Position numbers and translations under genes: made by a program. Positions 28,075 through 58,213 of a DNA stretch of 64,000 bases are shown here, piece after piece. Source of the DNA: Cyclobacteriaceae bacterium. Lineage in GTDB: Bacteria > Bacteroidota > Bacteroidia > Cytophagales > Cyclobacteriaceae. A model generated the notes under the pieces. That model saw only the letters and a program-made list of their open reading frames with translations. It was not told where the DNA came from and ran no database searches. How positions within the stretch are numbered: position 1 is the stretch's first letter; every line of letters starts with the position of its first letter. Location of the stretch: assembly GCA_028285685.1 (NCBI GenBank), contig JANQOR010000014.1, positions 48,287 through 112,286 of the forward strand. Reading direction: 5' to 3'.

Positions 28075-28148
28075 TGGAGCTAGCCGGATTCGAACCGGCG
28101 GCCTCTACACTGCCAGTGTAGCGCTCTAGCCAACTGAGCTATAGCCCC
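28075..28148 (-). tRNA. tRNA-Ala (anticodon GGC)
   Basis: The reverse complement folds as a 74-nt cloverleaf: GGGGCTA TA GCTC AGTTGGCTA GAGC G CTACA CTGGCAG TGTAG AGGCC GCCGG TTCGAAT CCGGC TAGCTCC A. It has the G3:U70 Ala identity pair. CCA is not encoded. Confidence 0.95.
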
Positions 28149-40442: not shown

Positions 40443-40658
40443 TTTATTAGTATTTAGATTTCGAATTTCTTTTCCCTCCCTATTATCGAATTCCATACCA
40501 GTCCAATTTTTAATCAAAAAAGTGACACTTTGGCATTATTTATTGCTTTCGTTATAAAATTATATGCCATTTTGGCATTAAGTTGTCGTCACTTGGCTTT
40601 TTCGATCAGTTTTGAGAGCCTTCATTCAGCAAACCATCTCTTTATATTTGCGATAATA

Positions 40659-42728
40659 ATGAAGAGGACTCCAATCATATTGCTGCTTTTAATTCCATTG
40701 CTTGCTTTGCCGCAGGCCCAGTTTACGGATGTGACTTCATCAAAAGGGTTCCTGACCTTCACTCCTGCTCACTCTTTTGGTAGTGGTGTTTCAGCTGCAG
40801 ATTATGATAGTGATGGAGATATTGATCTGTACATTTTAACTGATGGAAGTTCAGACAACATGCTATGGAGAAATTCGGGAGACGGAAGTTTCGAATTGCT
40901 GCAATCTGCTTTGAGTATCCCTATGAACAGTCGGGCAGCGTTGTGGTTCGACTATGACGGAGATCATCTTTTAGATCTTGTTGTCGCTGGGGACTGTCTT
41001 GGTGCTTCGGGCTCTTGTCCAGATGAAGACTTTGTTAAGCTTTTCAGGCAACTCCAGGATGGTTCCTTCCAAGATGTAACTGCACAATCTGGTCTTACTA
41101 CAGGGAGAGAAGTTGAAGGAGTGTTTGGAGGTATGGCTGCTGGTGACATAAACAATGATGGCCACTTAGACTTAGTACTTGACTATTGGAACGGAAATGT
41201 TTTTCTATATCAAAACGAGGGAGACGGAACTTTCGAAGATATCTCCATCATAAAAGGGGTATCAAAGTCTTCTGATTACTGGCAACCTCTAATTTTCGAT
41301 ATGACGGGAAATGGCTGGTCAGATGTATATCTCACTGTTGACAACGATCCAAATTTGTTTTGGGAGAACAATGCAGACGGATCATTCGAAGAAATTGGGA
41401 CAAGTCTGGGGTTGGACAACAGTCACAACGACATGGGGGCGTGCTTTGGGGATTTCGACAATGACGATGACCTGGATATTTACATCACCAATATCGAGCG
41501 TGATCTGCCGGGCAAGCACAATGCACTATTTGAAAATAGAAGTAATGGAGAGCAGGTGCTTTTTGAAGAGGTTTCGAAGACAGCTGGTGTCAGTGCTGGT
41601 GGTTGGGGCTGGGGAATTACCTTCCTAGATGCTGACAACGATATGTGGTTGGATCTAGCCGCTACCAATGGACCTGTGGACACTTATGTCCTGGATGACA
41701 AAGCGAAGTTTTGGAAAAACAATGGTGATTTTACCTTCACGGACATTTCTGCTGAGGCTCGTTTCAACACCAATCTTGACGCGACAACTTTAATATCACT
41801 TGATTACGATCGTGATGGTGATCTTGACCTGGTTCAAACCTTGAAAGCAGATCAAGATCCGGTTGCGGTAAAACTCCTCGAAAACCAGCTGAATACAAGT
41901 TCAGAGTTTGGGAACTATCTGGTGGTAAAGCCTCGAATGGTGGGCGCTAATCATTGGGCGATTGGCAGCAAGGTTGGTATTCGTACAGGCTCAGGTGTAC
42001 AATCGCGTGCAATCACTGCAGGCAACAGTTTTTATGGCCAAGAGCCATCCGAGGCATTTTTTGGTCTGGGAGAAATTTCAATGGTTGATGAGGTTACAGT
42101 TGTGTGGCCAGGAGGTGCTAAGAGCACGGTTTCAAATGTTTCCGTCAACCAGATCTTAACATTAGAAGACCAGGATGTTCTCCACGCACCAGGACTTTTG
42201 ACTGCCAAAAACATCGAAGCCTCAGTTGTCGAATTAAGATGGGGACATATGTCTACAATTCAGAGTGAGTTCTTGATCGAACGGTCTGAATCATCAGATT
42301 TTATCTCGGTCGAAACATTCAACACCGAGGGAAGCAAATACAGCTACACCGATGAAACAGCGATATCAGGCACATACTATTACCGTGTGAAAGCTTCCAA
42401 TGGTGAGATTCACTCTGAGCCAAGCAACACCGCTCTGGTAAGCACCGAGGACGTAGTTTTAAGTGTCAGTCCAGAAGATAACTTCAAGATCTATCCAAAT
42501 CCCAGTCAAGGTTCATTTAACATTTCACTACCGGCAGAGGTTTCGGGACAAATTGAACTTCAACTCGTCACTTTGGCAGGTAGGGTGATTGAAAAGCGGT
42601 TCTATTCAAATGAAACCATGGTCAAGGAATTACATGTGCAAACAAATACGGCACCAGGAATCTACCTATTGAAGTTAGGATTTGAAAACGGAGTGCCAGT
42701 TGTTAGAAAGGTTTTCGTCCAGAGATAA
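40659..42728 (+). CDS. FG-GAP/VCBS-repeat + ASPIC/UnbV (CRTAC1-like) protein with T9SS C-terminal sorting domain
   Basis: Six or more D.D.DGD.DL Ca-binding FG-GAP loops. The UnbV/ASPIC block is GNSFYGQEPSEAFFGLGE...V.V.WPGG. A fibronectin-like segment is present. The T9SS tail is KIYPNPSQGSFNISL...GIYLLKL. The start was moved to ATG 40659 (MKRTPIILLLLIPLLALPQAQ). Confidence 0.85.
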   Translation: MKRTPIILLLLIPLLALPQAQFTDVTSSKGFLTFTPAHSFGSGVSAADYDSDGDIDLYILTDGSSDNMLWRNSGDGSFELLQSALSIPMNSRAALWFDYDGDHLLDLVVAGDCLGASGSCPDEDFVKLFRQLQDGSFQDVTAQSGLTTGREVEGVFGGMAAGDINNDGHLDLVLDYWNGNVFLYQNEGDGTFEDISIIKGVSKSSDYWQPLIFDMTGNGWSDVYLTVDNDPNLFWENNADGSFEEIGTSLGLDNSHNDMGACFGDFDNDDDLDIYITNIERDLPGKHNALFENRSNGEQVLFEEVSKTAGVSAGGWGWGITFLDADNDMWLDLAATNGPVDTYVLDDKAKFWKNNGDFTFTDISAEARFNTNLDATTLISLDYDRDGDLDLVQTLKADQDPVAVKLLENQLNTSSEFGNYLVVKPRMVGANHWAIGSKVGIRTGSGVQSRAITAGNSFYGQEPSEAFFGLGEISMVDEVTVVWPGGAKSTVSNVSVNQILTLEDQDVLHAPGLLTAKNIEASVVELRWGHMSTIQSEFLIERSESSDFISVETFNTEGSKYSYTDETAISGTYYYRVKASNGEIHSEPSNTALVSTEDVVLSVSPEDNFKIYPNPSQGSFNISLPAEVSGQIELQLVTLAGRVIEKRFYSNETMVKELHVQTNTAPGIYLLKLGFENGVPVVRKVFVQR

Positions 42729-42873: not shown

Positions 42874-42947
42874 TCTCCCTTAGCTCAGCTGGTTAGAGCA
42901 TCTGACTGTTAATCAGAGGGTCCTTGGTTCGAGCCCAAGAGGGAGAG
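42874..42947 (+). tRNA. tRNA-Asn (anticodon GTT)
   Basis: 74-nt cloverleaf: TCTCCCT TA GCTC AGCTGGTTA GAGC A TCTGA CTGTTAA TCAGA GGGTC CTTGG TTCGAGC CCAAG AGGGAGA G. Confidence 0.95.
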
Positions 42948-44214: not shown

Positions 44215-44407
44215 AGACCGAACCCCGTGTTAAACGCGTTTTTCGTTATTTGAATTTTATCCAGATGGCTGTTCCAATCTATGTAAGGAGTAACACCTTA
44301 CACCTCCATAAATACCATTCACCCCTCAATTCCTGTCACTAGACGATTTCTCCTGAAGTCAATACTTCAGAAAAATAGTTTTGAATCAAAAACTAAAGCT
44401 TACTACT

Positions 44408-46243
44408 ATGTGTGGAATCGTTGGATACTTAGGACAAAATCAAGCATACCCTTACTTAATTGAAGGATTGAAATCGCTAGAATACAGAGGCTATGATAGT
44501 GCAGGTGTTGCGCTCATGAATGGCTCATTAAGAGTATTCAAGAAACAGGGGAAAGTCCGTAACCTTGAAGCATTTGTTGACGGAAAAAACCTGTCAGGCA
44601 ACGCGGGAATCGGACATACCCGCTGGGCGACGCACGGAGAGCCCTCTGATCAAAATGCGCATCCGCACACCACTCAAAAAGGGAGTCTTGCTTTGATCCA
44701 TAATGGGATCATTGAGAATTATGAAACCCTAAGGAAGGAACTCATTTCCCGTGGACATGTATTTGAATCTGAGACGGATACCGAAGTTCTTATTCATTTG
44801 ATTGAAGAAATCCAGATCAATAACCATTGTATGTTGGAGAAGGCGGTGCAATTGGCCCTTCAACGAGTGGAAGGCGCATATGCCATCATCGTGATGTCAA
44901 AGGATGATCCAGAAAAATTGGTCGCTGCAAGAAAAAGCAGTCCCCTGGTTGTTGGAATGGGCGACAATGAGTATTTCATCGCTTCTGATACAATGGCTAT
45001 GGGTCAGCACGTCAATCGTGTCGTTTACCTTGATGATGAACAAATTGCGATCTGCCGATCCACGAAAGAAATTGAAATCAAAACGATCGAAGATATTCCC
45101 GTAACTCCTTACATTGAGGAATTTGATTCGAACCTCAGCATACTGGACAAACAGGGCTTTGAACACTTTATGCTAAAGGAAATCTACGAGCAGCCTAAAT
45201 CAATCAGAAATGGCTTGAGAGGAAGAATAACGCCCGACGGAGAAATCCACCTGAAAGGTATTTTGGAGCATGCTGAGAGATTTTGCGAGGCTAAAAGAAT
45301 CATCATCGTGTCTTGTGGCACATCATGGCATGCGGGGCTAGTGGGCGAATATCTAATTGAAAAGTATGCGAAAGTGCCTGTTGAGGTAGAGTATGCTTCA
45401 GAGTTCAGATACAGAGACCCTCTTATTACGGACGAGGATGTTGTAATAGCCATCTCGCAATCAGGCGAAACAGCCGATACACTTGCTGCTCTTGAAATTG
45501 CCAAAGAAAAAGGAGCATTTACGTTCGGGATATGCAACGTTGTGGGTTCGTCTATAGCAAGGGTGACCGACGCGGGCATCTACACAAAAGCTGGAAACGA
45601 AATAGGGGTGGCTTCAACGAAAGCCTTTACCTCACAAATGACCGTATTAACCATGATGGCTCTTCAGATGGGTAAGATCAAAGGAACGATCGAAAGGGCT
45701 GAACTACGAGACCGTGTCAAAGAACTGGACAGACTTCCTGATTTGATTAAACAAGCACTTTCGGGCGATAAGATCACTCACTTGATTGGTGATCTGTTTG
45801 CGCAAGCATCGAACTTTCTGTACCTCGGTCGAGGAGTGAATTTCCCAATAGCCCTTGAAGGTGCACTGAAGTTGAAGGAGATTTCATACATCCATGCGGA
45901 AGGATATCCGGCTGCCGAGATGAAACATGGACCTATCGCCTTGATTGATGAAAACATGCCAGTTGTAGTTATCGCCAATAGCAAGGAGAATTATGAGAAG
46001 GTTGTAAGTAACATTCAGGAGGTGAAGGCAAGAAACGGAAAAGTGATTGCCATCATCGAGACCGACGATAGGGACATTTTCAAATTAGCAGATGCAGTGA
46101 TCGAAGTTCCGAAGTGTTCAGAGTTGCTAACACCATTCCTCTCAGTAATTCCTTTGCAGCTTTTGTCCTATCATATTGCCAACAAGTTGGGCAAGGATGT
46201 AGATCAGCCACGGAACCTTGCAAAGTCAGTTACAGTCGAGTAA
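44408..46243 (+). CDS. glmS: glutamine--fructose-6-phosphate aminotransferase (isomerising)
   Basis: MCGIVGY Ntn-Cys start (the track start 44381 adds 9 residues), two SIS domains (SQSGETADT) and a C-terminal ...LAKSVTVE. Confidence 0.93.
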   Translation: MCGIVGYLGQNQAYPYLIEGLKSLEYRGYDSAGVALMNGSLRVFKKQGKVRNLEAFVDGKNLSGNAGIGHTRWATHGEPSDQNAHPHTTQKGSLALIHNGIIENYETLRKELISRGHVFESETDTEVLIHLIEEIQINNHCMLEKAVQLALQRVEGAYAIIVMSKDDPEKLVAARKSSPLVVGMGDNEYFIASDTMAMGQHVNRVVYLDDEQIAICRSTKEIEIKTIEDIPVTPYIEEFDSNLSILDKQGFEHFMLKEIYEQPKSIRNGLRGRITPDGEIHLKGILEHAERFCEAKRIIIVSCGTSWHAGLVGEYLIEKYAKVPVEVEYASEFRYRDPLITDEDVVIAISQSGETADTLAALEIAKEKGAFTFGICNVVGSSIARVTDAGIYTKAGNEIGVASTKAFTSQMTVLTMMALQMGKIKGTIERAELRDRVKELDRLPDLIKQALSGDKITHLIGDLFAQASNFLYLGRGVNFPIALEGALKLKEISYIHAEGYPAAEMKHGPIALIDENMPVVVIANSKENYEKVVSNIQEVKARNGKVIAIIETDDRDIFKLADAVIEVPKCSELLTPFLSVIPLQLLSYHIANKLGKDVDQPRNLAKSVTVE

Positions 46244-46288: not shown

Positions 46289-48367
46289 ATGCCGGTAGAG
46301 AATCTAAGCGATAAGATATCCTTTGTCAAGGGAGACGAGAAGTACAGAAGTATCATTGACAATATGAATCTGGGCTTGTTAGAAGTTGATTTAGAGGGAG
46401 TTATTCAACATGCCAACGCTTCGTTTTGCAAGATGGTTGGGTACGATTCTAAAGAACTGCTGGGCAATTACGCCAATGAACTTTTTGTGTCTCGAGGTAG
46501 CCTCAGTGAGAAGTTGATAGAAGAGCATTCGTCGAAAAGGCTGAAGGGTCAACACAGTGTGTATGAGGTGCAGATCACAAGAAAGAACGGGCTTAGGATA
46601 TGGGTTATGATCGGTGGGGGGCCACTTTATGATCAAGATGGATCTGTGGTGGGAACAATTGGTATTCACCTCAATGTCACCGACAAGAAACAGAATGAAG
46701 AAGGACTTAAACGACTTGTCCGACAACTGGCTCAAAAAAACCAGGAATCAGAGCGTCAGCAAAAATTTCTCAAAGCTATCAATGACTTTTCCAATTTAAT
46801 TGCTGACAGACAGAGTATAACCGAGATCGCAGAAATCATGACAAGCAGTGTGATTGAGAAATTTGGGTTTGAGGACTGCATTATCTACGTACTGGATGAG
46901 GAAGAAACGCTTAAACAGGCTTCGGCATTCGGACCTAAGAAAGACGAGTGGGGGGGTGTTAGAAACCCAATCCGCATTCCATTGGGTCAGGGCATTGTAG
47001 GTACCGTTGGCAAAACCGGAAAAGCCGAAATTATCAAGGATACCTCCAAAGACTCACGGTACATTTTGGATGATACACACCGACTTTCGGAAATATCCGT
47101 TCCCATCATCTATGATGGTCACGTGTTGGGAGTCATTGACTCCGAGCATTCTCAAAAAGATTTCTTCAAACAGGAACACCTCGATACACTAACAACCCTT
47201 GCTAGTCTGGCATCTTCTCGCTTAAAATCCGCGATTTCATGGGAAAAGGCAGAGCGGGTCAGGTCGGAATTACAAGAAAGTGAATCAAAGTTCAGGAACA
47301 TCATTGACTCAGCACTTGATGCGGTTGTAATAATAGATGGCAAAGGAATTGTGACGGAGTGGAACCACCAGGCTGAGGAGACATTTGGATATAAGAGCAA
47401 GGAAACCATTGGCAAGAAATTGTCAGGATTAATCATTCCGAATCAGTACAAAGCTGCTCACGAAAAGGGCATGAAGAAATTCCATCAGACCGGGGAAGGA
47501 CCTGTCCTCAATCAACGGATTGAAATCACGGCTGTAGGCAAGAATCGGGCTGAGTTCCCAATTGAACTCAGTATTTCGCCCATCAAGGTTGATAATCAGC
47601 ATTTTTTCAGTGCTTTTCTGAGAGACATATCCGAGCAGAAGGCCAATCAGGAGAAAATTGAAAAGTCGCTCGAGCGAGAACGAGAGCTGAGCGAGTTGAA
47701 ATCGAAGTTTGTTTCCATGGCCTCACACGAGTTCAGAACACCGCTCACCACAATCAAAGTGAATGTCGATCTGCTGAATCACCGACTTGCCGATGCAAAA
47801 GATGCAGAACCAATGATGAAAAACCTGGAGCGAATTGATAATGAAGTGGAGAGGCTTAAGAGTTTAATGAACGATGTACTTACAATTGGAAAAATCCAGG
47901 CCGGAAAGGTTGACATTAATCTACAAAAAACCAACCTCGTCTACCTCGTAGAAAAGATAGTGGAAGCCTCGACATCCGCTCAATCGGATGGGCGAAAAGT
48001 CGCTTTCACCGTATATGGGATGGAAAAAGATGTCGAAATAGATCCTAACGTATTCGAACACATCATTAGCAACCTTGTGTCCAACGCTTTCAAATATTCA
48101 GAAGGCAAGGATGAGCCGGAGTTAACCATATCCTTCAAAAAAGGGAGGGTAGAGTTGATGGTACGAGATCATGGAATTGGGATTCCGAAAGAGGATTTAG
48201 AAAATATTTCAGATACCTTCTTCAGAGCTTCCAATGTTGGCAACATTCAAGGGTCAGGGATCGGTTTAGCCATCGTGAACCAGTTTGTCAAACTTCATAA
48301 TGGAACCTTCGATCTGAAGAGTGAGGAAAACAAAGGAACGACGGTAACTGTTTCCATTCCGTTATGA
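46289..48367 (+). CDS. PAS-GAF-PAS sensor histidine kinase (cytoplasmic)
   Basis: Two PAS modules and a GAF module (GIVG.V...G...I..D...D.RY....). The H-box is MASHEFRTPLT. The N-box is LVSNAFKYS, with G-boxes DHGIGIP and GSGIGLA. No TM segment. Confidence 0.88.
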   Translation: MPVENLSDKISFVKGDEKYRSIIDNMNLGLLEVDLEGVIQHANASFCKMVGYDSKELLGNYANELFVSRGSLSEKLIEEHSSKRLKGQHSVYEVQITRKNGLRIWVMIGGGPLYDQDGSVVGTIGIHLNVTDKKQNEEGLKRLVRQLAQKNQESERQQKFLKAINDFSNLIADRQSITEIAEIMTSSVIEKFGFEDCIIYVLDEEETLKQASAFGPKKDEWGGVRNPIRIPLGQGIVGTVGKTGKAEIIKDTSKDSRYILDDTHRLSEISVPIIYDGHVLGVIDSEHSQKDFFKQEHLDTLTTLASLASSRLKSAISWEKAERVRSELQESESKFRNIIDSALDAVVIIDGKGIVTEWNHQAEETFGYKSKETIGKKLSGLIIPNQYKAAHEKGMKKFHQTGEGPVLNQRIEITAVGKNRAEFPIELSISPIKVDNQHFFSAFLRDISEQKANQEKIEKSLERERELSELKSKFVSMASHEFRTPLTTIKVNVDLLNHRLADAKDAEPMMKNLERIDNEVERLKSLMNDVLTIGKIQAGKVDINLQKTNLVYLVEKIVEASTSAQSDGRKVAFTVYGMEKDVEIDPNVFEHIISNLVSNAFKYSEGKDEPELTISFKKGRVELMVRDHGIGIPKEDLENISDTFFRASNVGNIQGSGIGLAIVNQFVKLHNGTFDLKSEENKGTTVTVSIPL

Positions 48368-48396: not shown

Positions 48397-49119
48397 ATGA
48401 ATGCACTAAAAATATTAATTGTAGAAGATGAGCAGCCCATCGCTGAAAGCCTCCAGGAAATTCTCGAAATCCTCAAACATTCAGTGGTAGGAATTGCATC
48501 GAGCCACGATGAAGCCCTCCATCAGCTAAATACCAATGAAATTGACCTGGTGCTTTTGGACATTCAGCTCAAGGGCGATAAATCAGGAATTGATGTGGCA
48601 GAGACCATCAATGCAAAGTTTAACGTACCCTATATTTTCACTACCGCTTTTGCCGACGAATCCACCGTAAAGCAAGCTAGCGAGCTAGGCCCATATGGTT
48701 ATGTGGTTAAACCTTATGGGATGAAAGACATCGGTCCAGCCATCGAGGTAGCCTTTCAGAATTTTCAAAAAGCACGAGAAATCAAATCAGAGCAAGGACA
48801 GTTTCTCTCCAATCACCTGTATATAAAGGCCAACTCCAAACTCATTCGACTGAACGATGACGAGGTGCTCTACATTGAAGCTAAGGGAGACTATGCCCTA
48901 TTTAAGACACCGGAGAAAGGCTATGTTGTGCACTCGACAATAAAGAACGTTGCTGAAAAAATGGATCCTCAAAAGTTCCTGAAGGTTCATCGCTCGTACA
49001 TAGTCAACCTTGACAAAATCAAGGACATTGAAGATTCAAGCATTCTAATTGAGGACAAAGTCATTCCTGTCAGTAGACAAAACAAGCCGGACTTGATGAA
49101 AAGGATCGATTTGATCTAA
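48397..49119 (+). CDS. LytR/AlgR family response regulator (REC + LytTR DNA-binding domain)
   Basis: The REC domain has ILIVEDE and DLVLLDIQL. The LytTR domain reads I....I.YIEAKGDY....T......V..T.K.......F..VHRSYIVNL. Confidence 0.9.
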   Translation: MNALKILIVEDEQPIAESLQEILEILKHSVVGIASSHDEALHQLNTNEIDLVLLDIQLKGDKSGIDVAETINAKFNVPYIFTTAFADESTVKQASELGPYGYVVKPYGMKDIGPAIEVAFQNFQKAREIKSEQGQFLSNHLYIKANSKLIRLNDDEVLYIEAKGDYALFKTPEKGYVVHSTIKNVAEKMDPQKFLKVHRSYIVNLDKIKDIEDSSILIEDKVIPVSRQNKPDLMKRIDLI

Positions 49120-49205: not shown

Positions 49206-50882
49206 GTGCTAAACTACAATACTAAACTGATTTTACTTCTTTGCCTCATTGCATCCATTGATGGAGTGAGAGCGCAAAAGCATGTGACTGAGCTATCGGA
49301 CTTATACCGACAAGCAAAAAGTCAGCTGGACTCATTATGTCATCCAAAACTCAAAACCCATGATGAAATTCAAAAACTTTTTACTCCTGATTCTTTTCGC
49401 TTTGCTGATCATCGTTCGGAAATCCTACTTGAAGAACTCAAAGTAGACCAGAACGATTACGGACTAAATTTCTTGTCGAGCTACACACGAAATTTTGGAG
49501 ACGGCTTCAATAACGAGACAGAAAACTTCACCAGAGACCGGTTTGCGCTGGAAGTGCAATGGAATCTGCTAAGCGAAGGTTATCGTCACAACAAGATAAA
49601 AAATGAGGTCGCAGCCAACGAGCTAGCTATCAATGAATTGGAAAGGAGGCAGTACCTAAAGCAACGCGAGTATGGACTGCAATACAATGCTATTATTTAC
49701 CTGTTCAATCAAGCGAAGCTTTCCTTTCTACAATCCAGATTGGATCAATTGGAAAATCAAGAGCACATTTTTAATGACTTGTACCTGAACCACTTACTAC
49801 CCTATACACATGTACTAGCCGTGCGGAAAAAAGTCTCTAAATACCGGCTGTTTATCAAAGACTGTGAAGCCTTTAATATAAGCTTTGAAACAGCCACTAG
49901 TTGGAAGCCTATGGGAGATGCCACACAATTCCCTGTGTATGGGGTCGCAATAGCGCAATTACTGGAATCAGGAGATCTCGACCACGAAAGTCAGAAACTA
50001 CTGGAATATCAGAACCAAAATGTCTACCTGCGTGATCAGCTACAAAAGGATATACGATTAAGAGTATTCGCACGCAGGACATATACAGCGGGAGCGTTGG
50101 ACGGATTTAACCGTAACTTCAACTCGCTGGGAGTAGCTGTGAATGTACCGCTACGCAACTTCCGCAACTCACGGGAAAAGTTACTTGACCTACAAGTTCA
50201 GCAGAATGTCAAAGAGCACGACTATGAAACCTACCACCAAAAGAAGGAGCTGCTGAATCACTACTACGAGTACGAATACAAGCTGCATCAATATCAGCAG
50301 ATGGCTTTTGATGCCCGCAAACTCGACGAGATCATCCGTAAAGATCAGCTAAAAGGTAAGGATTTGAGTTTCCATGTCAGCAAAGTCAACTCGCTGGAGC
50401 TGCTGAATGAACGTGCGGATATCGAACTGGAATTGATCACTCTCAAACAACAGCTGTATTTGAAATTGCTCAAAATTCACTCGCTTGCCGGAGTCGATGA
50501 CATGTCTGTCTACCTGATACCTGATGAGGAGATCCAGGAAAAGAAATTAATTGGTGAGCGGATTGCTGTAGTCAGATCGGCTGACATTGAAAGGTACAGT
50601 TTCGATCTTATCACAGCCTATTTGAAGAATAGTGAAATCAACAAAATCAAAGTCGACTCGCTTTCTGAGATTACGACCCTTAAAATCAAAGGTCAGGGAA
50701 TAGAGATTATCAATTCCCATGGTAAAGCGCTACCAGTGCACCCAAGTAGCTTCTCCAGTAAGTCGGAGATGGAGCAATTCATCCGTCACCAGCTTTCCAA
50801 AGAAACAAGGCCAATCCTGATTTTAGACTTATCTGCACTCATTGAGCTGGAGTTGAAAACCATTAAAAATCAACAACAATGA
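49206..50882 (+). CDS. TolC/OMF-like outer-membrane channel protein with ~125-aa C-terminal extension of unknown fold
   Basis: Signal peptide (LLLCLIASIDGVRAQ). A two-fold internal repeat pairs short beta segments with long heptad helices (FALEVQWNLLSEGY...NELAINELERRQ... and LGVAVNVPLRNF...LLDLQVQQN...). The track start is GTG. The assignment was made by pattern only. Confidence 0.55.
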   Translation: MLNYNTKLILLLCLIASIDGVRAQKHVTELSDLYRQAKSQLDSLCHPKLKTHDEIQKLFTPDSFRFADHRSEILLEELKVDQNDYGLNFLSSYTRNFGDGFNNETENFTRDRFALEVQWNLLSEGYRHNKIKNEVAANELAINELERRQYLKQREYGLQYNAIIYLFNQAKLSFLQSRLDQLENQEHIFNDLYLNHLLPYTHVLAVRKKVSKYRLFIKDCEAFNISFETATSWKPMGDATQFPVYGVAIAQLLESGDLDHESQKLLEYQNQNVYLRDQLQKDIRLRVFARRTYTAGALDGFNRNFNSLGVAVNVPLRNFRNSREKLLDLQVQQNVKEHDYETYHQKKELLNHYYEYEYKLHQYQQMAFDARKLDEIIRKDQLKGKDLSFHVSKVNSLELLNERADIELELITLKQQLYLKLLKIHSLAGVDDMSVYLIPDEEIQEKKLIGERIAVVRSADIERYSFDLITAYLKNSEINKIKVDSLSEITTLKIKGQGIEIINSHGKALPVHPSSFSSKSEMEQFIRHQLSKETRPILILDLSALIELELKTIKNQQQ

Positions 50883-52015
50883 AAAAGTTTGATTACAAAA
50901 AGAAGCCCTCCATCATTCGAACATTGAAGGAGCCGCCTAAGAAGAAAAAGAAAATTAACTGGGACCGTGTCCTGTTTCTTGCAGCAATTTTCATTGGCCT
51001 CTTTTTTCTCTTGCGTCATACGTACAAGAGCGTTGCACTTGTGGAGGCCGACGGTCAAGTGATGTTAGAAAGTATCAAGGTAAACTTCATCAATGACATC
51101 CGTCTCAGAAATCTGAAGGTGACGGAAGGCGACACTGTTCAGGCACTGGATACGCTGTTCTCATACTGGAATGAACTCCATGATGATGACGGATCGAAGA
51201 GTGTCCAGATAAATAATACTAACGAGTGGGTAAGAAAGGAAAAATTGAACCTTCTTCGGAAGATTAGTCAGAAAAATGTTGAGCTGCGAGAAGCCACACG
51301 ATTGCTTGAAGAGTATGGCGCACAAAAAGAGAAGCTCGTTCAGTTCGTAATGCTGGATGCAGCCGAAAATTCGAGCCTTCAAGCAGTAACCAATCAACTC
51401 CTTAGTCTGGAAAGCCGACAGGAGATTCTTCGAAACGAAGTCTTCTACTTGAGGCGACACTACAATCAATTGAGATCTGAAGAAGCTACATTGGTGGATT
51501 TGACCTCCGGTGGCTATAGCAGCGCGTTAACAAGCAATCTGTATATCTCTCCTTTTAGAGGTATCATCGGTGAAATTCAGATCCAACCAAACGAAGTGTG
51601 CTATGAGGGAGAATACGTTTTTACCATCCATAGTCCCGAAAAAATCGCCATCCACGCTTACTTCAGTCAAAAAAACATTGATCGAATCTTCCTCAATGAA
51701 ATTGTAAAAGTCTCTTTTCCCGACGGATCGGAAGGAAGAGGATACATCAAAAAATATCACATTTCTACGAAGGAGCTTCCTCCTGAATTTCAAAAGAAAT
51801 ATGAGCCAACGGAACGAACAATCTTAACAGAAATTTTTCCGATAGACGAAGAAACAGCGACTCTCTGGAAGAAATTTTACAAAATGGACGTTCGGGTTTC
51901 TCTACCAAGGTTTCGGTCTGAGATCTACATGCCAGACAGGGAGTCTGACGAGCAGATTTCCAATTCCAATAATCCCATAAAATCTTCCATTCAACCGAAT
52001 AAGAAAGTCAACTAA
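50879..52015 (+). CDS. HlyD-family membrane-fusion (periplasmic adaptor) protein
   Basis: Basic cytoplasmic N-terminus and a single TM helix (VLFLAAIFIGLFFLL). A lipoyl-like hairpin (LRNLKVTEGDTVQALDTLF), a long coiled coil and a second lipoyl half plus barrel (SPFRGIIGEIQIQPNEV..EGEYVFTI) follow. ATGA overlaps the upstream stop. Confidence 0.7.
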   Translation: MKKFDYKKKPSIIRTLKEPPKKKKKINWDRVLFLAAIFIGLFFLLRHTYKSVALVEADGQVMLESIKVNFINDIRLRNLKVTEGDTVQALDTLFSYWNELHDDDGSKSVQINNTNEWVRKEKLNLLRKISQKNVELREATRLLEEYGAQKEKLVQFVMLDAAENSSLQAVTNQLLSLESRQEILRNEVFYLRRHYNQLRSEEATLVDLTSGGYSSALTSNLYISPFRGIIGEIQIQPNEVCYEGEYVFTIHSPEKIAIHAYFSQKNIDRIFLNEIVKVSFPDGSEGRGYIKKYHISTKELPPEFQKKYEPTERTILTEIFPIDEETATLWKKFYKMDVRVSLPRFRSEIYMPDRESDEQISNSNNPIKSSIQPNKKVN

Positions 52016-52071: not shown

Positions 52072-53424
52072 ATGCAAGTACTATTAAACAATACGAATGA
52101 ATCAATGCAGACTCCCGTGGTAGGAGAATGGGGAATCTATGAGGAGCTACTCCTCAATAACAAAGAGATTGCTGTTGTCGGATTAGGCTATGTGGGCCTC
52201 CCCATTGCCCTGGAATTTGCCAAAGACTTTTCCGTTGTAGGGTTCGACATCAACGAAGGGAGAGTTCAAATGATGCAAGATGGTCAGGACCCATCGAATG
52301 AGCTGGAAGAAGGTGAGTTCGAAGGTCGAAACATCACCTTCTCAGCAGATTCTTCTGAAATGGCGCACGCAAAATTTTACGTGGTTGCTGTTCCAACACC
52401 AATCGATGCAAACAATGAACCCGATTTGAGACCTCTGATAGGGGCTACCCGAACTGTAGGTAAGGTGCTAAAAGCAGGCGATTATGTGGTGTTTGAATCA
52501 ACGGTTTACCCAGGCTGCACAGAAGAAGTATGCATTCCCCGTTTGGAGGAAGAGTCTGGCCTGAAGTTTAACAAAGATTTTAAAGTAGGATATTCCCCGG
52601 AGCGAATCAATCCCGGAGACAAAGTGAACACCTTAACGAAGATCACCAAGGTGGTTTCGGGCAGCGATCAGGAGTCCTTGGAGCAAATTTCGAAAGTCTA
52701 CGGACATATAATCGAAGCAGGCGTGCATAAGGCGTCCTCCATAAAAGTTGCCGAAGCCTCCAAGGTGATTGAAAACACTCAACGCGATGTAAACATTGCA
52801 TTGATCAACGAACTATCTGTTATTTTCAGCAAGCTCGGTATCGACACTTACGAAGTACTTGAATCAGCTGGAACCAAGTGGAATTTTCTGAAGTTTCAGC
52901 CCGGCCTGGTCGGCGGTCACTGCATTGGTGTGGATCCCTACTATCTGATTCACAAGGCAAAGGCTGAAGGGGTGAACCCTGCTGTTATTGCAAGTTCAAG
53001 AGCACGCAATGACGAGATGGCCAGCCACCTTGCCCTTTCACTAATGGAAGAGTTGAAGCAAAAAGGTAAAAAGACGCAAGGCGCTAAGGTCTTAGTGCAA
53101 GGAATCACCTTCAAAGAAGATGTTTCGGATATCCGAAATTCAAAAGTTGTTGATCTGATTTGTGAACTGAAAGCGGGTGGATTGCATGTGGACGTGACCG
53201 ATCCTTATGCTGACAAACATGAGGTCGAGGAAGAGTACGGGATTCTCCTAAAACAAACTCCTGATAATGATTATGACGCAATAGTTGTTGCTGTCGACCA
53301 CAAACAATACAGCTTCCTTGACTCCTCGTACTACCATGCCATCTGCAATGCAGATCCGGTCATTATGGACCTGAAGAAGACAGTCGAAGGCAAAGTCAAT
53401 GGATTTCAGTACATGAGTATGTAA
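52072..53424 (+). CDS. nucleotide-sugar 6-dehydrogenase, TviB/WbpO-like (UDP-N-acetyl-hexosamine dehydrogenase)
   Basis: VVGLGYVGLPIALEFA Rossmann fold, VPTPID, ESTVYPG.TEE, GYSPERINPGD, KV.EN..RD.NIAL.NEL, the catalytic GGHCIGVDPYY, and GITFKE...D.RNS. Confidence 0.85.
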   Translation: MQVLLNNTNESMQTPVVGEWGIYEELLLNNKEIAVVGLGYVGLPIALEFAKDFSVVGFDINEGRVQMMQDGQDPSNELEEGEFEGRNITFSADSSEMAHAKFYVVAVPTPIDANNEPDLRPLIGATRTVGKVLKAGDYVVFESTVYPGCTEEVCIPRLEEESGLKFNKDFKVGYSPERINPGDKVNTLTKITKVVSGSDQESLEQISKVYGHIIEAGVHKASSIKVAEASKVIENTQRDVNIALINELSVIFSKLGIDTYEVLESAGTKWNFLKFQPGLVGGHCIGVDPYYLIHKAKAEGVNPAVIASSRARNDEMASHLALSLMEELKQKGKKTQGAKVLVQGITFKEDVSDIRNSKVVDLICELKAGGLHVDVTDPYADKHEVEEEYGILLKQTPDNDYDAIVVAVDHKQYSFLDSSYYHAICNADPVIMDLKKTVEGKVNGFQYMSM

Positions 53425-53463: not shown

Positions 53464-54831
53464 ATGCTGCAAGTATTACATCAAACCGAAGGTAGGCGAT
53501 ACATTGAGAGTCAGGGACTAAGGTTCCTGTTCCTCTCTGGTGTCGCCGACTATGAAGCAGCATCTGTCAAAGATTCCGATGCGATTATCATAGGAGAAAT
53601 GGACAGAATGGAAATTTCTCAACTCCTGAACGTTATAAGAAGGGAACGTGACAAGTCAGTTTATCTCAAGCCTATCTTTAGCGTGCATCAGAACAAGCTA
53701 CAAAATCAGGAAGGCTTTGATGGCTTCACAGATCTCACGTCCAACGAATCGATCGCTCAGGTAACACAAAAGATACTCGCGAGGATAGAAAAAGTGAATA
53801 CAAGTATTGTCCCGCACGACTATGAAAGGCAGGTACTGTTCAAGCAGATGGCTTTTTTGTACACTAGAGATCTCCTACTAGATCCTGTGTCCTCAAGGTT
53901 TTCCAAAATCGGATACACATTTCCCTTCATGGATAGCCTGCTTTCTGGTGGATCGTCGCTGGAACTATTGAAAATTCTCAACACCGGTGTTGAAAAAGGG
54001 TTATTAACTGCTCGTCTGAGGGACAGAATTCATACCTGTAACAACTGTCATGGTAACTATATCAACTTCCGAGAAGTGTGCCCAAAGTGTAGCAGCGTAA
54101 ATATTGAGTCAAAGGATCTGGTTCATCACTTCAAGTGTGCTCACGTTGATGTGATCGACTCATTCAAGGATGGTGACGAGCTGATCTGTCCAAAGTGTGA
54201 CAACAAGTTGCGTCACATCGGTATTGACTATGACAAGCCATCCACCATGCATGAGTGTCATGATTGTCACCATCAGTTTCAGGAGTCTGGCATGGTTGCT
54301 TTTTGCATTGATTGCGGAAAAGAGGAAGACACAGCCAACCTGCTTGAAAATGAAATACGATCTCACGCCCTGACCGAGAGAGGCGAGCATTTGGTTCTCA
54401 ACGGGTGGGAGGAAAAAGTGCAAGAGGGTGGGCAGGAAGCGAAGCACTTGTCTCCTGACTTGTTCAAGATGATGCTGAACCTTGAAATACAACGTGCAAC
54501 AACAGAGACTCGAAGTGTTTTCGGAAGATTTGAAATCAGCGAAATAATTGTGTCAGTCCTTGGCGAAGATGGACGTGAGCAATTTCAGAAGGAAATTCTA
54601 GGAATTATCGGCAGTTATATCGATCGTACAGACCTTGTCTCGACTAAAAGTGCCGACGAATATCTTCTCTTGTTTCATGACAAAACACTTGAAGAAGCTC
54701 GCGAAAAATGTGAGTTGATCGAACACAATCTGACGAAGCTCATTGCCGATAACATCAATGCAGAGCAAGATCTTATTACTGGCACGGTTCAACCCGTCGT
54801 ATCAGACCTGCGTCCCCAGGATTTGATGTAA
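53464..54831 (+). CDS. multidomain regulator-like protein: receiver-like N-domain + Cys-rich Zn-ribbon module (TackOD1-like) + degenerate GGDEF-like C-domain
   Basis: Residues 192-284 carry five CxxC pairs (CNNC, CPKC, CPKC, CHDC, CIDC) with HHFKC between them. The C-terminal ~100 aa follow the GGDEF-fold pattern, with SADEY (aa 396-400) in place of GGDEF, followed by LLLF. Domain calls were made by eye. Confidence 0.6.
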   Translation: MLQVLHQTEGRRYIESQGLRFLFLSGVADYEAASVKDSDAIIIGEMDRMEISQLLNVIRRERDKSVYLKPIFSVHQNKLQNQEGFDGFTDLTSNESIAQVTQKILARIEKVNTSIVPHDYERQVLFKQMAFLYTRDLLLDPVSSRFSKIGYTFPFMDSLLSGGSSLELLKILNTGVEKGLLTARLRDRIHTCNNCHGNYINFREVCPKCSSVNIESKDLVHHFKCAHVDVIDSFKDGDELICPKCDNKLRHIGIDYDKPSTMHECHDCHHQFQESGMVAFCIDCGKEEDTANLLENEIRSHALTERGEHLVLNGWEEKVQEGGQEAKHLSPDLFKMMLNLEIQRATTETRSVFGRFEISEIIVSVLGEDGREQFQKEILGIIGSYIDRTDLVSTKSADEYLLLFHDKTLEEAREKCELIEHNLTKLIADNINAEQDLITGTVQPVVSDLRPQDLM

Positions 54832-56138
54832 TGGAAAACCTTTGGCCAGAATTTGTAAACTATTGGGTCGAGGCGGGTCCATGGAAATTTCTAAGGGTCT
54901 TCTGGTACTTCCTCATCTTCGAGTTTACCCGTTATATCATTCTAGACTACTTCGTGGCTGGCTTATTCTACCTCCGAAGAAAAGATCGGAGACATGCCTG
55001 GGAGATTGCCAGACAGAAACTTTTCACAGAAAACCCACTTATATCCATCATCATCCCAGGCAAAAATGAAGGCAAGCATATTTTCAAACTGGTGAAGTCT
55101 CTGGCCGAGCAAACATATCAGAATTTCGAACTGATTGTAGTCGACGATGGCTCAGATGACCAAACGCCCATTATTGGTAAAAATCTTGAAAAGCGGGGAT
55201 TGATCGATATGTTCATTCGAAATGAAATGCGTGGAGGAAAAGCATCCGCAGCAAATACTGCATTGGCTTTTACGAAAGGCAAATACATTGTCCATCTTGA
55301 TGCAGACTGCTCCTTCGACCGTGACGCGATCGAGAACGTGGTAATACCCTTCTACCTTGATGAAAAAATCGGTGCTGTAGGAGGTAATGTCAAAGTCCGC
55401 AACTATCAAGAGAGCTTATGTGCACGATTACAGGCAATCGAATACCTGAAAACCGTTTCTGTTGGCAGAATTATTACCTCCTACCTTGGCATTTACAAGA
55501 TCGTTTCCGGGGCGTTCGGAGCTTTCCGTCCTGAAATACTTAAAGCAATTGGAGGATGGGATATTGGACCGGGATTGGATGGAGACATCACTGTAAAAAT
55601 TAGAAAATCAGGCTACAAAATTCATTTTGAACCAACAGCTGTGTGCTTAACCAATGCGCCGGCAAAATTCAAAGTGCTCACTAAGCAGCGATTGAGATGG
55701 GATAAATCCATCATTCGCTTTCGAGTAAGGAAACACAAAGATGTCTACTTCCCTCATGCAAATTTCAACTGGTTGAATTTCATATCTCTGTTTGAGAATG
55801 TGTTCTACAATGTAGTGCTGGACATCACATGGATCATTTACACTGTTGATGTCGTGTTACATTATTGGTCGCTCATGGGTTTTATCATCCCCATGAACTT
55901 TGTGTTGTATATCACCGTGAGCTACGTACAGATGCTGTCTGTCTACTTGTTTTCAGAACGCAGACAGGAAGAAAAAAAACTCTGGAACGTACTACCCTTG
56001 ATGACGATCTACACCGGCCTTTACCTCCGGACCGTCCGCACCATTGCCTATTTCAAGGAATTCGTCCTGAAGGAATCGTATGACGATCCGTGGAACCCCC
56101 AGAAGTCTTCCCGAATGGCTAAACGATTTGGGTTATAG
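54831..56138 (+). CDS. processive family-2 glycosyltransferase / polysaccharide synthase (PgaC/IcaA/NodC/HasA-like topology)
   Basis: Two N-terminal TM helices and a GT-A core with VVDDGSDD, HLDADC (DxD), GAFGAFR and QRLRW (aa 286-290, the Q(Q/R)xRW processivity motif). Three to four C-terminal TM helices follow. TAATG overlaps the upstream gene. Confidence 0.88.
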   Translation: MENLWPEFVNYWVEAGPWKFLRVFWYFLIFEFTRYIILDYFVAGLFYLRRKDRRHAWEIARQKLFTENPLISIIIPGKNEGKHIFKLVKSLAEQTYQNFELIVVDDGSDDQTPIIGKNLEKRGLIDMFIRNEMRGGKASAANTALAFTKGKYIVHLDADCSFDRDAIENVVIPFYLDEKIGAVGGNVKVRNYQESLCARLQAIEYLKTVSVGRIITSYLGIYKIVSGAFGAFRPEILKAIGGWDIGPGLDGDITVKIRKSGYKIHFEPTAVCLTNAPAKFKVLTKQRLRWDKSIIRFRVRKHKDVYFPHANFNWLNFISLFENVFYNVVLDITWIIYTVDVVLHYWSLMGFIIPMNFVLYITVSYVQMLSVYLFSERRQEEKKLWNVLPLMTIYTGLYLRTVRTIAYFKEFVLKESYDDPWNPQKSSRMAKRFGL

Positions 56139-56231: not shown

Positions 56232-58136
56232 ATGAAACAGAAAAATTTAATCATGCTCTTCTTCCTCACGGCAATGGGCTGTGGTACTGAAGTTGACATG
56301 GAGGTGGTCCCACTAGATGTAGCAGAATCGTCCGAGGTATATGCCGGGGATCCGGGCACATTCGCATCCCGGATGCACTACGTTAACAGAACAATTTTGC
56401 TGACTCCACATGCTGATGGCAGAGGAAGAATTTCTGCTCGATCTACTACGGGAGGTCAATTGGACTACTATTGGGCGCATATTGCATCTGTAGATGCCCC
56501 AGTCATTGATGGTTTGCAGATGAGTGCCACTCATTTCGACATTAAGAACAACCTCGCGTATGTTAGCTATCACAAGCGAGCTGAAACTCACAAGGGGGTT
56601 TTAGATATCATCGATCTAAGCGATCCATATCGACCGGAGATTACGGATCAGCTGATCTTTAGTCTGGCTGACGTAAATGCCTTGGCATGTGACAAGGATG
56701 GCACCTTGTGGACTGCCACTTCCCACTCAAAACATGGTGCAGCACTATACAAAGTGCCGACGATTGGTTCTTCGTTTACAAGAGAAGCATCAAGATACAC
56801 ACTGAGCAATGCCCTGGATAATGGAGTTTCTGCTTCGGCCAACGGAGTGGCACTTACAGAAAACTACGCTGCACTTTCGGCTGGAAAAACCCACGGTGGT
56901 ACTTTCATCGTGGATAAAAACACACTAAGTGCCTCAGAAGTTTTCAGTTATCCGAATGGAAAATATGTGGTTACCACAGAAATCAATGGAGCAGAATATC
57001 ATGCCTCACTCTCGACAGGAGATATTGCCAGCTTAAAGGTGAAGCAGGTTGGAACTCGTGCGGAGCTGTCTGAATATTCTATCGGAACGATCACCCATCA
57101 AAATGTGGACGCGACATACCGAGGGAAATCCACCATGGAAATTTCACCACAAAATGCACGTGAGGTATTCGTGGCGATGGGAGAAGAAGGATTGAGGTCT
57201 TTCGACATCCTCACAGGTAAACTTCTGAATGAGTCAAAGGGAACCATGCTGATGGCGGGCAATACCAATGGAGTCACCATGGACAAAGATTTCCTTTACA
57301 TCGCTAATGGCGCTGATGGGCTTTCAATATCAGAATACCCTGAAGACGGTACGATTGACCCTATATTTTATTGGGATTTACCCGAACAGCCAGCTTCTGT
57401 CAATTTTACGAAGGCGAGCAACGAATACATCTTCGTTGCAAAAGGACTCGGTGGATTTCACATTTTGAAGAAGGTTCCAAAAGCACCTTATTCAACCGTT
57501 ACAACCTATGATAACATTGGTGTTCCGGAAAATATGGAGCAAAGGGAGGTGTGCTCGAAACTCCTGCCCACGCTATTCGACCGAGCGCTGCCTGAGCGAA
57601 ACAACGTGATGCGTAGTAATCCTGAGTTCTTTGAAGTTGAAGCGAGGAATATCGATATTGTAGAGGACGGAGAAGTTTCTGTGACCTTCCTACACGAAGG
57701 TGCTGGTTACAAAAACATACTTGGGTACCACGTATACAAAACGGATGCTCCGCCAGCCTCCGTAGATGAGGTGGAGAAGGTCGTTATTTTTCCTAACGCT
57801 TCCGCTCAAAGATCGGGAGGTGGTTTGGTAAGGGGGAACTCAGTTGAGCTTTTGGGTTCATTTGAGGCAGGTACCTCTATTGGCTTCTTTCTGATCTCGA
57901 ATGGCTGGAAAGGAAAAATCACTGACGGATTGTACACCCAATATACTGACATCCCATTTAATGTCAGTGGACGCCAGCAAAGTCTGATCTTTCATGAGCG
58001 ATCTTGTGACGCTATTGTGATCGCTTTTGAAGACATCACCGTCCCGAACGGAGATAATGATTTTAATGACGCAATCTTCCAGATTCATTCTGATCCCCCA
58101 ACGGCTATCGATGCGTCGGCTTACATTCAACTCTGA
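56232..58136 (+). CDS. lipoprotein with LVIVD-type beta-propeller repeats and C-terminal DUF4114 domain
   Basis: Lipobox LTAMGC. LVIVD-like units are present (GVLDIIDLSDPYRPEI, DGLSISEYPEDG). The C-terminal block VSVTFLHEGAGYKN.LGYH......GFFLISNGW....VIAFEDI....GDNDFNDAIFQI is typical of DUF4114. Confidence 0.7.
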   Translation: MKQKNLIMLFFLTAMGCGTEVDMEVVPLDVAESSEVYAGDPGTFASRMHYVNRTILLTPHADGRGRISARSTTGGQLDYYWAHIASVDAPVIDGLQMSATHFDIKNNLAYVSYHKRAETHKGVLDIIDLSDPYRPEITDQLIFSLADVNALACDKDGTLWTATSHSKHGAALYKVPTIGSSFTREASRYTLSNALDNGVSASANGVALTENYAALSAGKTHGGTFIVDKNTLSASEVFSYPNGKYVVTTEINGAEYHASLSTGDIASLKVKQVGTRAELSEYSIGTITHQNVDATYRGKSTMEISPQNAREVFVAMGEEGLRSFDILTGKLLNESKGTMLMAGNTNGVTMDKDFLYIANGADGLSISEYPEDGTIDPIFYWDLPEQPASVNFTKASNEYIFVAKGLGGFHILKKVPKAPYSTVTTYDNIGVPENMEQREVCSKLLPTLFDRALPERNNVMRSNPEFFEVEARNIDIVEDGEVSVTFLHEGAGYKNILGYHVYKTDAPPASVDEVEKVVIFPNASAQRSGGGLVRGNSVELLGSFEAGTSIGFFLISNGWKGKITDGLYTQYTDIPFNVSGRQQSLIFHERSCDAIVIAFEDITVPNGDNDFNDAIFQIHSDPPTAIDASAYIQL

Positions 58137-58183: not shown

Positions 58184-58213
58184 TGGCTCCCTCCACGGGG
58201 GCCTTTCTTTTTT
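58184..58213 (+). terminator. rho-independent terminator closing the 49.2-58.1 kb operon
   Basis: ggctccc-tccac-gggggcc stem (one G:U pair), followed by TTTCTTTTTTCTC. Confidence 0.7.

Follow-up and report, generated by a model that had tools for sequence, protein, structure and literature searches.

BcsE, which regulates cellulose secretion of the E. coli type, combines a degenerate receiver (REC) domain with a degenerate GGDEF domain and binds cyclic di-GMP (c-di-GMP) through an intact RxxD motif (R415/D418), and PelD, the c-di-GMP receptor for the Pel polysaccharide, joins a GAF domain to a GGDEF domain that has lost its active site and kept a functional inhibitory site (I-site), for which the RxxD is needed (PMC7439463). 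A rhizobial mixed-linkage glucan is produced by BgsA, BgsB and TolC, a tripartite synthase system (PMC13438883). The TackOD1 domain has been described as containing 11 cysteines, in five CxxC motifs and one HxxC motif, with a function called 'obscure' (PMC5847659), and a fusion of TackOD1 with GGDEF in bacteria is already listed in Table S5 of Galperin et al. 2018. Here, we report on a gene for a protein with TackOD1 and GGDEF-like parts, located in a 64,000-nucleotide stretch of DNA (the window) from contig JANQOR010000014.1 of a Cyclobacteriaceae bacterium, where it lies immediately in front of the gene for a processive family-2 glycosyltransferase (GT2) within an exopolysaccharide (EPS) locus.

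Our analysis suggests, with a probability of roughly 60%, that this protein (the window protein) lacks enzymatic activity of its own and serves the GT2 as a soluble cytoplasmic partner, acting as a signal adaptor in a conserved tripartite EPS machine of Bacteroidota, which would be made up of a TolC-like outer-membrane factor (OMF), a HlyD-like adaptor and the processive GT2. The gene, the parts of its product and its junction with the synthase gene are arranged as follows.

53464..54831, + strand: gene of the TackOD1/degenerate-GGDEF protein, the feature under study (open reading frame, ORF; 455 residues)
53464..53808, + strand: N-terminal domain, residues ~1-115; alpha/beta, with conserved D39, R59, L68-K-P70 and D86-G87; weakly receiver-like
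53821..54366, + strand: TackOD1 domain, residues 120-301 (PF18551), made of a helical subdomain (120-180) and a triple zinc-ribbon core (181-301)
54436..54828, + strand: degenerate, C-terminally short GGDEF-fold domain, residues ~325-455 (Foldseek, profile comparison with the PDB, column statistics)
54829..54833, + strand: TAATG, in which the stop codon of the TackOD1 gene overlaps the GT2 start codon (sequence)
54831..56138, + strand: processive GT2 of 435 residues (Pfam, NCBIfam, motifs, PDB sequence matches)

The ORF proved to be real and encodes the full 455 residues. Its product is acidic (pI 5.2), with a net charge of -23 for the whole protein and -7 for the zinc-ribbon part (family medians, -11 and -6), and has no hydrophobic segment, indicating that it is soluble. 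We aligned it with 69 homologs, down to 28% identity, and the AlphaFold2 model built from the alignment reached a mean predicted local distance difference test score (pLDDT) of 87. Its relatives of the Ekhidna/Cyclobacteriaceae group are 64-66% identical, and their GT2 proteins are 90% identical to that of the window; a direct search of the sequence against PDB chains returned chance zinc-knuckle matches only. The protein has three parts, of which the central one is a TackOD1 zinc-ribbon module and the last a dead GGDEF-fold tail. The first-pass annotation, made from the letters alone, had proposed this pairing of a TackOD1 module with a degenerate GGDEF domain, and the PF18551 match, Foldseek and the family profile bear it out. 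Of the three families that it had named for hidden Markov model (HMM) searches, TackOD1 was found (E=1.2e-54), and GGDEF (PF00990) and Response_reg (PF00072) gave no match to the window protein even at E<=1.

The PF18551 match scores 185.2 bits against a cutoff of 32, spans model positions 5-186 of 188, and recurs in 69 of 69 homologs. All 11 conserved cysteines are present, in the pairs C192/C195, C206/C209, C242/C245, C265/C268 and C281/C284 and in H222xxC225; C192, C195, C206, C209, H221, H222, C225, C242, C245, C265, C281 and C284 are invariant in the alignment, and C268 is at least 90% conserved. The five CxxC pairs had been read earlier as nested zinc-ribbon motifs, and their presence, order and conservation agree with that description; some of the spacers had been miscounted and measure 8, 9 and 7 residues instead of 9, 13 and 9. 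From the spacing and from Galperin 2018 (PMC5847659), we predict three zinc sites, formed by C192/C195/C206/C209, H222/C225/C242/C245 and C265/C268/C281/C284, all of which are probably occupied. The zinc-ribbon core is the most conserved part of the protein: 31 of its 123 columns are at least 90% conserved, and the median identity to distant members is 46%, versus 23-26% for the flanking domains. When a separate model of residues 1-305 was compared with the PDB using Foldseek, the TackOD1 part had no structural analog at E<=1e-3. The domain is widespread, forming ~2,000 clusters at 50% identity among 1.8 billion representative proteins, yet a single paper names it in the literature that could be searched. 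One database protein of 1147 residues (P0208) carries a Mutator-family transposase domain (6-331) in front of TackOD1 (806-985), which is probably a gene-call fusion across an insertion sequence (IS).

Inside TackOD1, an invariant loop, H251-IGxDYDKPS-260 (window positions 54214-54243), has the lowest model confidence of the domain (pLDDT 61-67). Invariant residues H221, H251, D255 and D257 go beyond what three zinc sites need, and the loop, together with H221, could form a ligand or interface site. The same features, namely the 11 invariant cysteines with their additional His and Asp residues and the invariant low-confidence loop in a protein type that has no other visible input, would be expected if the domain were a redox or metal sensor, in which the cysteines act as a thiol or zinc switch tying oxidative or metal stress to polymer output. 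We consider this highly improbable, as CxxC zinc ribbons are usually structural, nothing specific points to a switch, and the cysteine pattern is equally conserved in family members that carry a REC domain or an RxxD motif.

For the C-terminal part, the 50 best PDB matches of the AlphaFold2 model in Foldseek were all GGDEF domains, aligned over ~125-140 columns, with target-normalised TM-scores of ~0.55-0.63 for isolated-domain entries such as 3ign and 4urq. Comparison of the family profile with solved diguanylate cyclases likewise retrieved DgcR (E=5e-5) and 3ign (E=7.7e-5), and it aligned SADEY (396-400) with the GG(D/E)EF position and DRTD (387-390) with the RxxD position. Both the fold and the placement of these two motifs had been proposed beforehand, and structure prediction, Foldseek and profile alignment agree with them. 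PF00990 is matched by 9 of the 69 relatives on their own (best E=2.6e-7), and an HMM built from three GGDEF sequences matches 21 TackOD1 proteins in the collected loci (best E=2.8e-11); because the window protein itself has no PF00990 match while its relatives and the family profile do, its homology to GGDEF domains is transitive only. The five columns of the GG(D/E)EF motif are unconserved in the family, and GG[DE]EF occurs in 0 of 214 family sequences. In addition, the metal-binding Asp residues of strand beta1 are lost and their positions variable, the nucleotide-binding stretch is replaced, and the domain stops shortly past the last core strand. Judging from these sequences, the domain is predicted to be catalytically dead throughout the family, and an active diguanylate cyclase was ruled out since the GGDEF motif and metal ligands are missing family-wide.

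The N-terminal domain is less easily assigned. In the model of residues 1-305 (pLDDT 88.6; predicted template-modelling score 0.80), it contains about four beta-alpha units, and the top Foldseek matches of this model were mostly REC domains (CheY, DivK, PleD), at weak E-values of 0.05-0.6 over ~80-90 columns and with target TM-scores of 0.3-0.45. None of the 69 members matches Response_reg, and hhalign of the N-terminal domain profile with a 20-sequence REC profile was not significant (probability 0.4%). The would-be phospho-acceptor position 44 is Gly in the window protein and D, N, Q, E or G across the family, the acidic pair of REC domains is absent, and K69-P70 is the sole motif reminiscent of them. 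Of the earlier description as a receiver fold without a clear phospho-acceptor, the second half is upheld by Gly44, and the first half retains the weak fold matches and lacks profile support. We accordingly dropped the label 'receiver domain' given the Response_reg and hhalign results; receiver ancestry is a reasonable guess.

Canonical REC domains do occur elsewhere in the family. At locus L119 (4535-5998), one takes the exact place of the N-terminal domain of the window protein, giving the archaeal order REC-TackOD1, and P0235 and P0172 have a homolog of this N-terminal domain and, following it, a canonical or weak REC as an insertion. The REC-bearing, apparently phosphorylatable variants (L119, P0235, P0172 (L082-L086), P0159, P0192, P0196, P0201 and P0217) all lack RxxD and are located in the same four-gene module, which is described below. 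At two of these loci, L084 (11173-13212) and L085 (4117-6156), the GT2 is followed by a gene for a polysaccharide-deacetylase-like protein with a faint Pfam match and a type IX secretion C-terminal domain; by analogy, this gene recalls PgaB/IcaB and hints at a GlcNAc (N-acetylglucosamine) polymer.

Relatives of the TackOD1 protein were found at more than 567 genomic loci, almost all of them in Bacteroidota, with Flavobacteriaceae, Saprospiraceae, Balneolaceae, Crocinitomicaceae and Cyclobacteriaceae among the carrier lineages. We examined the conservation of the TackOD1-GT2 pair in ~120 loci, comprising 80 fetched genome loci and metagenome loci collected from the GT2 side. Wherever flanking sequence exists among the 80 genome loci, the GT2 gene follows the TackOD1 gene directly and on the same strand; the GT2 proteins are 55-90% identical and the TackOD1 proteins 29-66%. 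TolC-like and HlyD-like genes lie upstream of the TackOD1 gene in nearly all 80, with dehydrogenase, DUF4114 and two-component genes being variable. Viewed from the GT2 side, a TackOD1 gene stands in front at every metagenome locus with enough upstream DNA, with one exception (L098), which was rejected as a true exception to the pairing because the locus is disrupted by an IS element: IS-type transposase ORFs (1260-2154) replace the HlyD-like and TackOD1 genes, the TolC-like and GT2 genes are truncated, and the module has decayed. The distance from stop to start, available for 102 loci, has a median of 0; the two genes overlap (negative distance) in 49 loci and are 0-30 nt apart in another 45, so that 94 of the 102 have a gap of at most 30 nt. 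In the window, the TackOD1 stop codon and the GT2 start overlap (gatttgatgTAATGgaaaac), as the first-pass annotation had noted and as inspection of the sequence verified. The core is a four-gene module of TolC-like, HlyD-like, TackOD1 and GT2 genes, in which TackOD1-GT2 is the tightest link.

Some genomes contain two full paralogous modules (L006 and L009 in one Tenacibaculum assembly; L033 and L035 in one metagenome-assembled genome, MAG). In a MAG labelled Desulfuromonadales (L068), the module is Crocinitomicaceae-like and its I-site reads RPSD, reflecting either horizontal transfer or a binning error, and at L092 a 669-residue protein (P0034) fuses a C-terminal dehydrogenase remnant to a full TackOD1 protein, probably through read-through of a decayed gene.

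The synthase itself carries the motifs DDGSDD105, DAD157 and QRLRW286, corresponding to the D, DxD and QxxRW signature of processive enzymes, together with hydrophobic C-terminal membrane segments. Its nearest named relatives are PgaC/IcaA and the hyaluronan/chondroitin synthases, although no equivalog cutoff was reached (TIGR03937, PgaC/IcaA, 179 bits versus a cutoff of 422). A Pfam scan and motif inspection of the GT2 revealed no PilZ or other sensor domain.

The strict coupling to the synthase gene across ~120 loci, which is typical of subunits and not of regulators, also bears on whether the protein might be a transcription factor for the EPS operon, binding DNA with its zinc ribbons and its helical subdomain. 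In archaeal response regulators, TackOD1 follows REC as the output domain (PMC5847659), the order of secondary-structure elements in residues 120-205 is winged-helix-like by inspection, one of 69 members has a weak HTH_45 match, and nucleic-acid binding is common among zinc ribbons. Nevertheless, both the whole protein and its zinc-ribbon part are acidic, the helix that would have to recognise DNA lacks both basic character and conservation, the structural search gave no significant match to a DNA-binding protein, and the locus already has a DNA-binding regulator of the LytTR type. Charge and context led us to judge a DNA-binding regulator very unlikely.

The first-pass annotation had gone further in proposing that the window protein is a c-di-GMP receptor, in which the DRTD/SADEY region would bind the messenger and open the synthase in the manner of PelD or BcsE. 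Like those two, the window protein pairs a GGDEF fold with a dead active site and is encoded within a synthase operon, and D390 of the I-site is 96% conserved. However, no RxxD is found five residues upstream of the GGDEF-motif position: the Arg position is occupied by D387, and R388 is shifted by one residue and unconserved in the closest relatives, which have DGTD, EETD, DVTD, AATD or AESD. Position 418, which we take to correspond to PleD R390, the secondary I-site Arg, is L, V, T or I, and the elements that complete a full GGDEF domain at its C-terminus are missing. Neither the 64-kb window nor 1.6 Mb of module flanks (122 loci) yielded a canonical GGDEF cyclase, the TackOD1 proteins alone being matched, and an Rfam scan of the whole window returned two tRNAs only (28075-28148, - strand; 42874-42947, + strand) and no c-di-GMP or other riboswitch. 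Because of the DRTD motif, the unconserved R388, the absent secondary Arg and the lack of a cyclase or riboswitch in these searches, c-di-GMP sensing by the window protein is not supported by its sequence, and we regard the receptor as unlikely.

Other members of the family differ in this respect. An Arg occupies the I-site position in 30 of the 69 aligned members and in 79 of 196 proteins in a wider census, with RPVD, RPID, RSSD and RSAD found in Saprospiraceae- and Crocinitomicaceae-type proteins; it is missing from the clade of the window, from Flavobacteriaceae and from Balneolaceae. That ~40% of the family keep RxxD despite decayed catalytic machinery suggests selection for dinucleotide binding there, and c-di-GMP sensing by these members is plausible from their sequences. 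The full census (n=196) comprises the 79 proteins with RxxD, 8 with REC (~4%), 0 with both and 109 with neither (~56%), the last being the type of the window protein, and RxxD and REC appear from these sequences to be mutually exclusive inputs. A LytTR regulator lies nearby at 25 of 39 RxxD-less loci versus 3 of 24 RxxD loci (Fisher p=7e-5, uncorrected for phylogeny), and the PAS-GAF-PAS kinase gene is syntenic mainly at loci whose TackOD1 protein is RxxD-less. The presence of an adjacent two-component system in RxxD-less clades, in place of an I-site, is a further point against reception of c-di-GMP by the window protein.

These observations are consistent with a synthase partner in which TackOD1 supplies the constant module, its triple zinc-ribbon core, which most likely docks on the synthase, or on the synthase-adaptor complex, from the cytoplasmic side. 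The flanking domains would be degenerate signalling modules that bear lineage-specific inputs, these being a retained RxxD that presumably binds c-di-GMP, a phosphorylatable REC, or neither. In the clade of the window, control has apparently shifted largely to transcription, through the PAS-GAF-PAS kinase and the LytTR regulator, and the synthase would need the window protein as a co-subunit or licensing factor, the overlap of stop and start keeping the two products in a fixed ratio. We infer that it contacts the GT2 physically, and its effect on the synthase would be activation. The earlier proposal of an allosteric gate of the synthase is retained here in so far as it concerns a partner or regulator tightly coupled to the GT2 in ~120 loci, and is given up with respect to c-di-GMP as its mechanism.

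Several points weigh against such a synthase partner and adaptor. Synteny and coupling indicate that the two genes are expressed together, not that their products touch; phylogeny confounds both the input census and the associations; the N-terminal domain has no assigned function; and TackOD1, judging from the models, has no PDB analog that would point to a binding mode. Furthermore, the window type has no recognised input, and 'adaptor' may overstate its role. It might be a pure zinc-stabilised scaffold for the folding, oligomerisation or assembly of the GT2, the membrane-fusion protein (MFP) and the OMF, similar to PgaD/IcaD but cytoplasmic, with the REC- and GGDEF-like parts as relics. PgaC-like synthases usually require a small partner. 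The obligate adjacency and coupling of the genes point to a stoichiometric subunit, a scaffold would fit the 56% of the family that have no recognisable input site, and conserved residues E341, R344, S351, E377 and D390 of the degenerate GGDEF domain look structural. Yet other lineages have repeatedly kept or added real inputs (RxxD, REC) on the same protein, which argues that it transmits signals, and the invariant R59, L68, P70 and D86 of the N-terminal domain would not be needed by a relic. We consider a pure scaffold rather unlikely and retain the partner and adaptor as our preferred interpretation.

A broader and more tentative idea, of which we remain doubtful, is that TackOD1 is a general docking module that links interchangeable inputs to membrane polymer-secretion machines. 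If true, these machines would be the GT2/MFP/TolC assembly in Bacteroidota and type IV pili in Thaumarchaeota, and the inputs would be REC phosphorylation, c-di-GMP at a relic I-site, or something else. As the window type has lost both inputs yet keeps the H-IGxDYDKPS loop and the spare invariant His and Asp residues, proteins of this type would sense a new signal directly, namely a metal, the redox state or a nucleotide-sugar, in the zinc-ribbon or the N-terminal domain.

The module of the window belongs to a run of nine same-strand genes, which encode GlmS, the kinase, the LytTR regulator, the TolC-like, HlyD-like and TviB-like proteins, the TackOD1 protein, the GT2 and a DUF4114 lipoprotein. 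The members other than the TackOD1-GT2 pair, and the probable end of the unit, are listed here.

44381..46243, + strand: GlmS, glutamine-fructose-6-phosphate aminotransferase (Pfam GATase and SIS); supply of the UDP-GlcNAc (uridine diphosphate GlcNAc) precursor
46289..48367, + strand: PAS-GAF-PAS histidine kinase, directly upstream of the module (Pfam)
48397..49119, + strand: REC-LytTR response regulator (Pfam)
49206..50882, + strand: TolC-like OMF with a signal peptide and a C-terminal extension of ~130 residues (weak OEP match)
50879..52015, + strand: HlyD/EmrA-type MFP (periplasmic adaptor) with one N-terminal transmembrane segment, 26-49
52072..53424, + strand: TviB-like nucleotide-sugar 6-dehydrogenase, probably acting on UDP-GlcNAc (TIGR03026 above cutoff); variable accessory
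56232..58136, + strand: predicted lipoprotein with C-terminal DUF4114, last gene of the unit (Pfam); variable accessory
58185..58203, + strand: terminator-like GC-rich hairpin followed by a T-run (consensus match only); likely end of the transcription unit

The export components are assigned with the help of their orthologs. OEP (PF02321) is weak in the TolC-like protein of the window and matched by 9 of 16 orthologs (best E=2.5e-9), and HlyD_3 is marginal in the MFP and matched by 13 of 15 orthologs (best E=7e-11); the MFP family profile also matches EmrA (1.4e-7) and HlyD. Some lineages have TolC-like equivalents of 707-722 residues with a large extra C-terminal domain (L119, 940-3108; L082, 4820-6943; L084, 4791-6953). 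The dehydrogenase scores 460 bits for NF011729 (TviB) versus a cutoff of 592, and its gene lies between the MFP and TackOD1 genes only at Flavobacteriaceae-, Balneolaceae- and Cyclobacteriaceae-type loci. The GlmS gene is 46 nt upstream of the kinase gene, and the supply of precursor may share its regulation with the polymer locus. Together, GlmS and the TviB-like dehydrogenase suggest a polymer containing GlcNAc and/or its uronic acid (GlcNAcA). A promoter scan of the locus gave background-level results, and no LytTR-type direct repeats were found in its intergenic regions. Outside the locus, positions 40530-42728 encode a protein with FG-GAP/ASPIC repeats and a type IX secretion sorting domain, which confirms that the host belongs to Bacteroidota.

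The first-pass annotation had considered a TackOD1-type module wired to a polysaccharide synthase to be undescribed. In the searchable literature, we found no link of TackOD1 to a polysaccharide synthase and no description of the module, whereas the TackOD1-GGDEF fusion had been noted in 2018; searches on such a module in Bacteroidota, on c-di-GMP in Flavobacteria and on double zinc ribbons with GGDEF brought up nothing specific beyond Galperin 2018. Through this locus and more than 560 similar ones, an orphan domain acquires a fixed, testable context, in which its gene directly precedes that of a processive polysaccharide synthase within an export module of the TolC/HlyD type. The module occurs commonly in Bacteroidota of sea and soil, and little is known of the exopolysaccharide machinery of this phylum or of its post-translational regulation; the likely GlcNAc/GlcNAc-uronic-acid polymer would be of interest to marine particle and biofilm biology. 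The family can also be viewed as a natural experiment that could reveal how second-messenger control is gained, swapped for a phosphorelay, or lost.

Compared with the archaeal TackOD1 proteins, the window protein is a bona fide member (185 bits, 11 Cys). Archaeal proteins, however, have the order REC-TackOD1 without a GGDEF-like tail and are encoded at type IV pilus loci (Thaumarchaeota/TACK), whereas here the domain lies between a non-REC N-terminus and a dead GGDEF domain and is tied to a GT2 synthase. The machine as a whole resembles the Bgs system and the Alg8-Alg44 system of alginate in combining a processive GT2 with a HlyD-type MFP and a TolC-like or other outer-membrane exit; co-encoded HlyD-type adaptors and TolC-type OMFs are recognised at the ortholog level, with the window proteins themselves marginal, and the dehydrogenase neighbour and the LytTR regulator are reminiscent of algD and AlgR. 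In those systems, c-di-GMP is sensed by the C-terminus of BgsA or the PilZ domain of Alg44, whereas in the window neither the GT2 nor the MFP has a sensor domain and a separate TackOD1/degenerate-GGDEF protein occupies that slot. The poly-GlcNAc synthases PgaC/PgaD and IcaA/IcaD offer another likeness, as the GT2 is closest to PgaC/IcaA among named families and they, too, pair a synthase with a dedicated co-encoded partner. Here, that partner is a soluble protein of 455 residues and theirs is a small membrane protein, export proceeds through MFP/TolC-like components and theirs through PgaA/PgaB, and the GT2 stays far below the equivalog cutoff.

Gene order and conserved adjacency place the window protein in a synthase-dependent EPS operon, as is the case for PelD and BcsE. 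With PelD, it shares a degenerate GGDEF domain tied to a synthase-dependent polysaccharide machine, but PelD is membrane-anchored and has a GAF domain and an RxxD, whereas the window protein is soluble and has TackOD1 and no RxxD. With BcsE, it shares the character of a soluble cytoplasmic accessory, encoded in a synthase operon, whose signalling domains are degenerate and include a dead GGDEF; BcsE chains were also among the weak fold matches of the N-terminal part in Foldseek. BcsE differs in having RxxD, where the window protein has DRTD, and no zinc ribbon, and in acting via BcsQ/R/F on the PilZ-bearing BcsA; beyond the GGDEF fold, no sequence relationship between the two was detected. By analogy with these systems, the TackOD1 protein would be classed as a partner protein with degenerate signalling domains, serving a synthase-dependent EPS machine; it would have an orphan zinc-ribbon core and interchangeable inputs and be functionally closest to BcsE and PelD.

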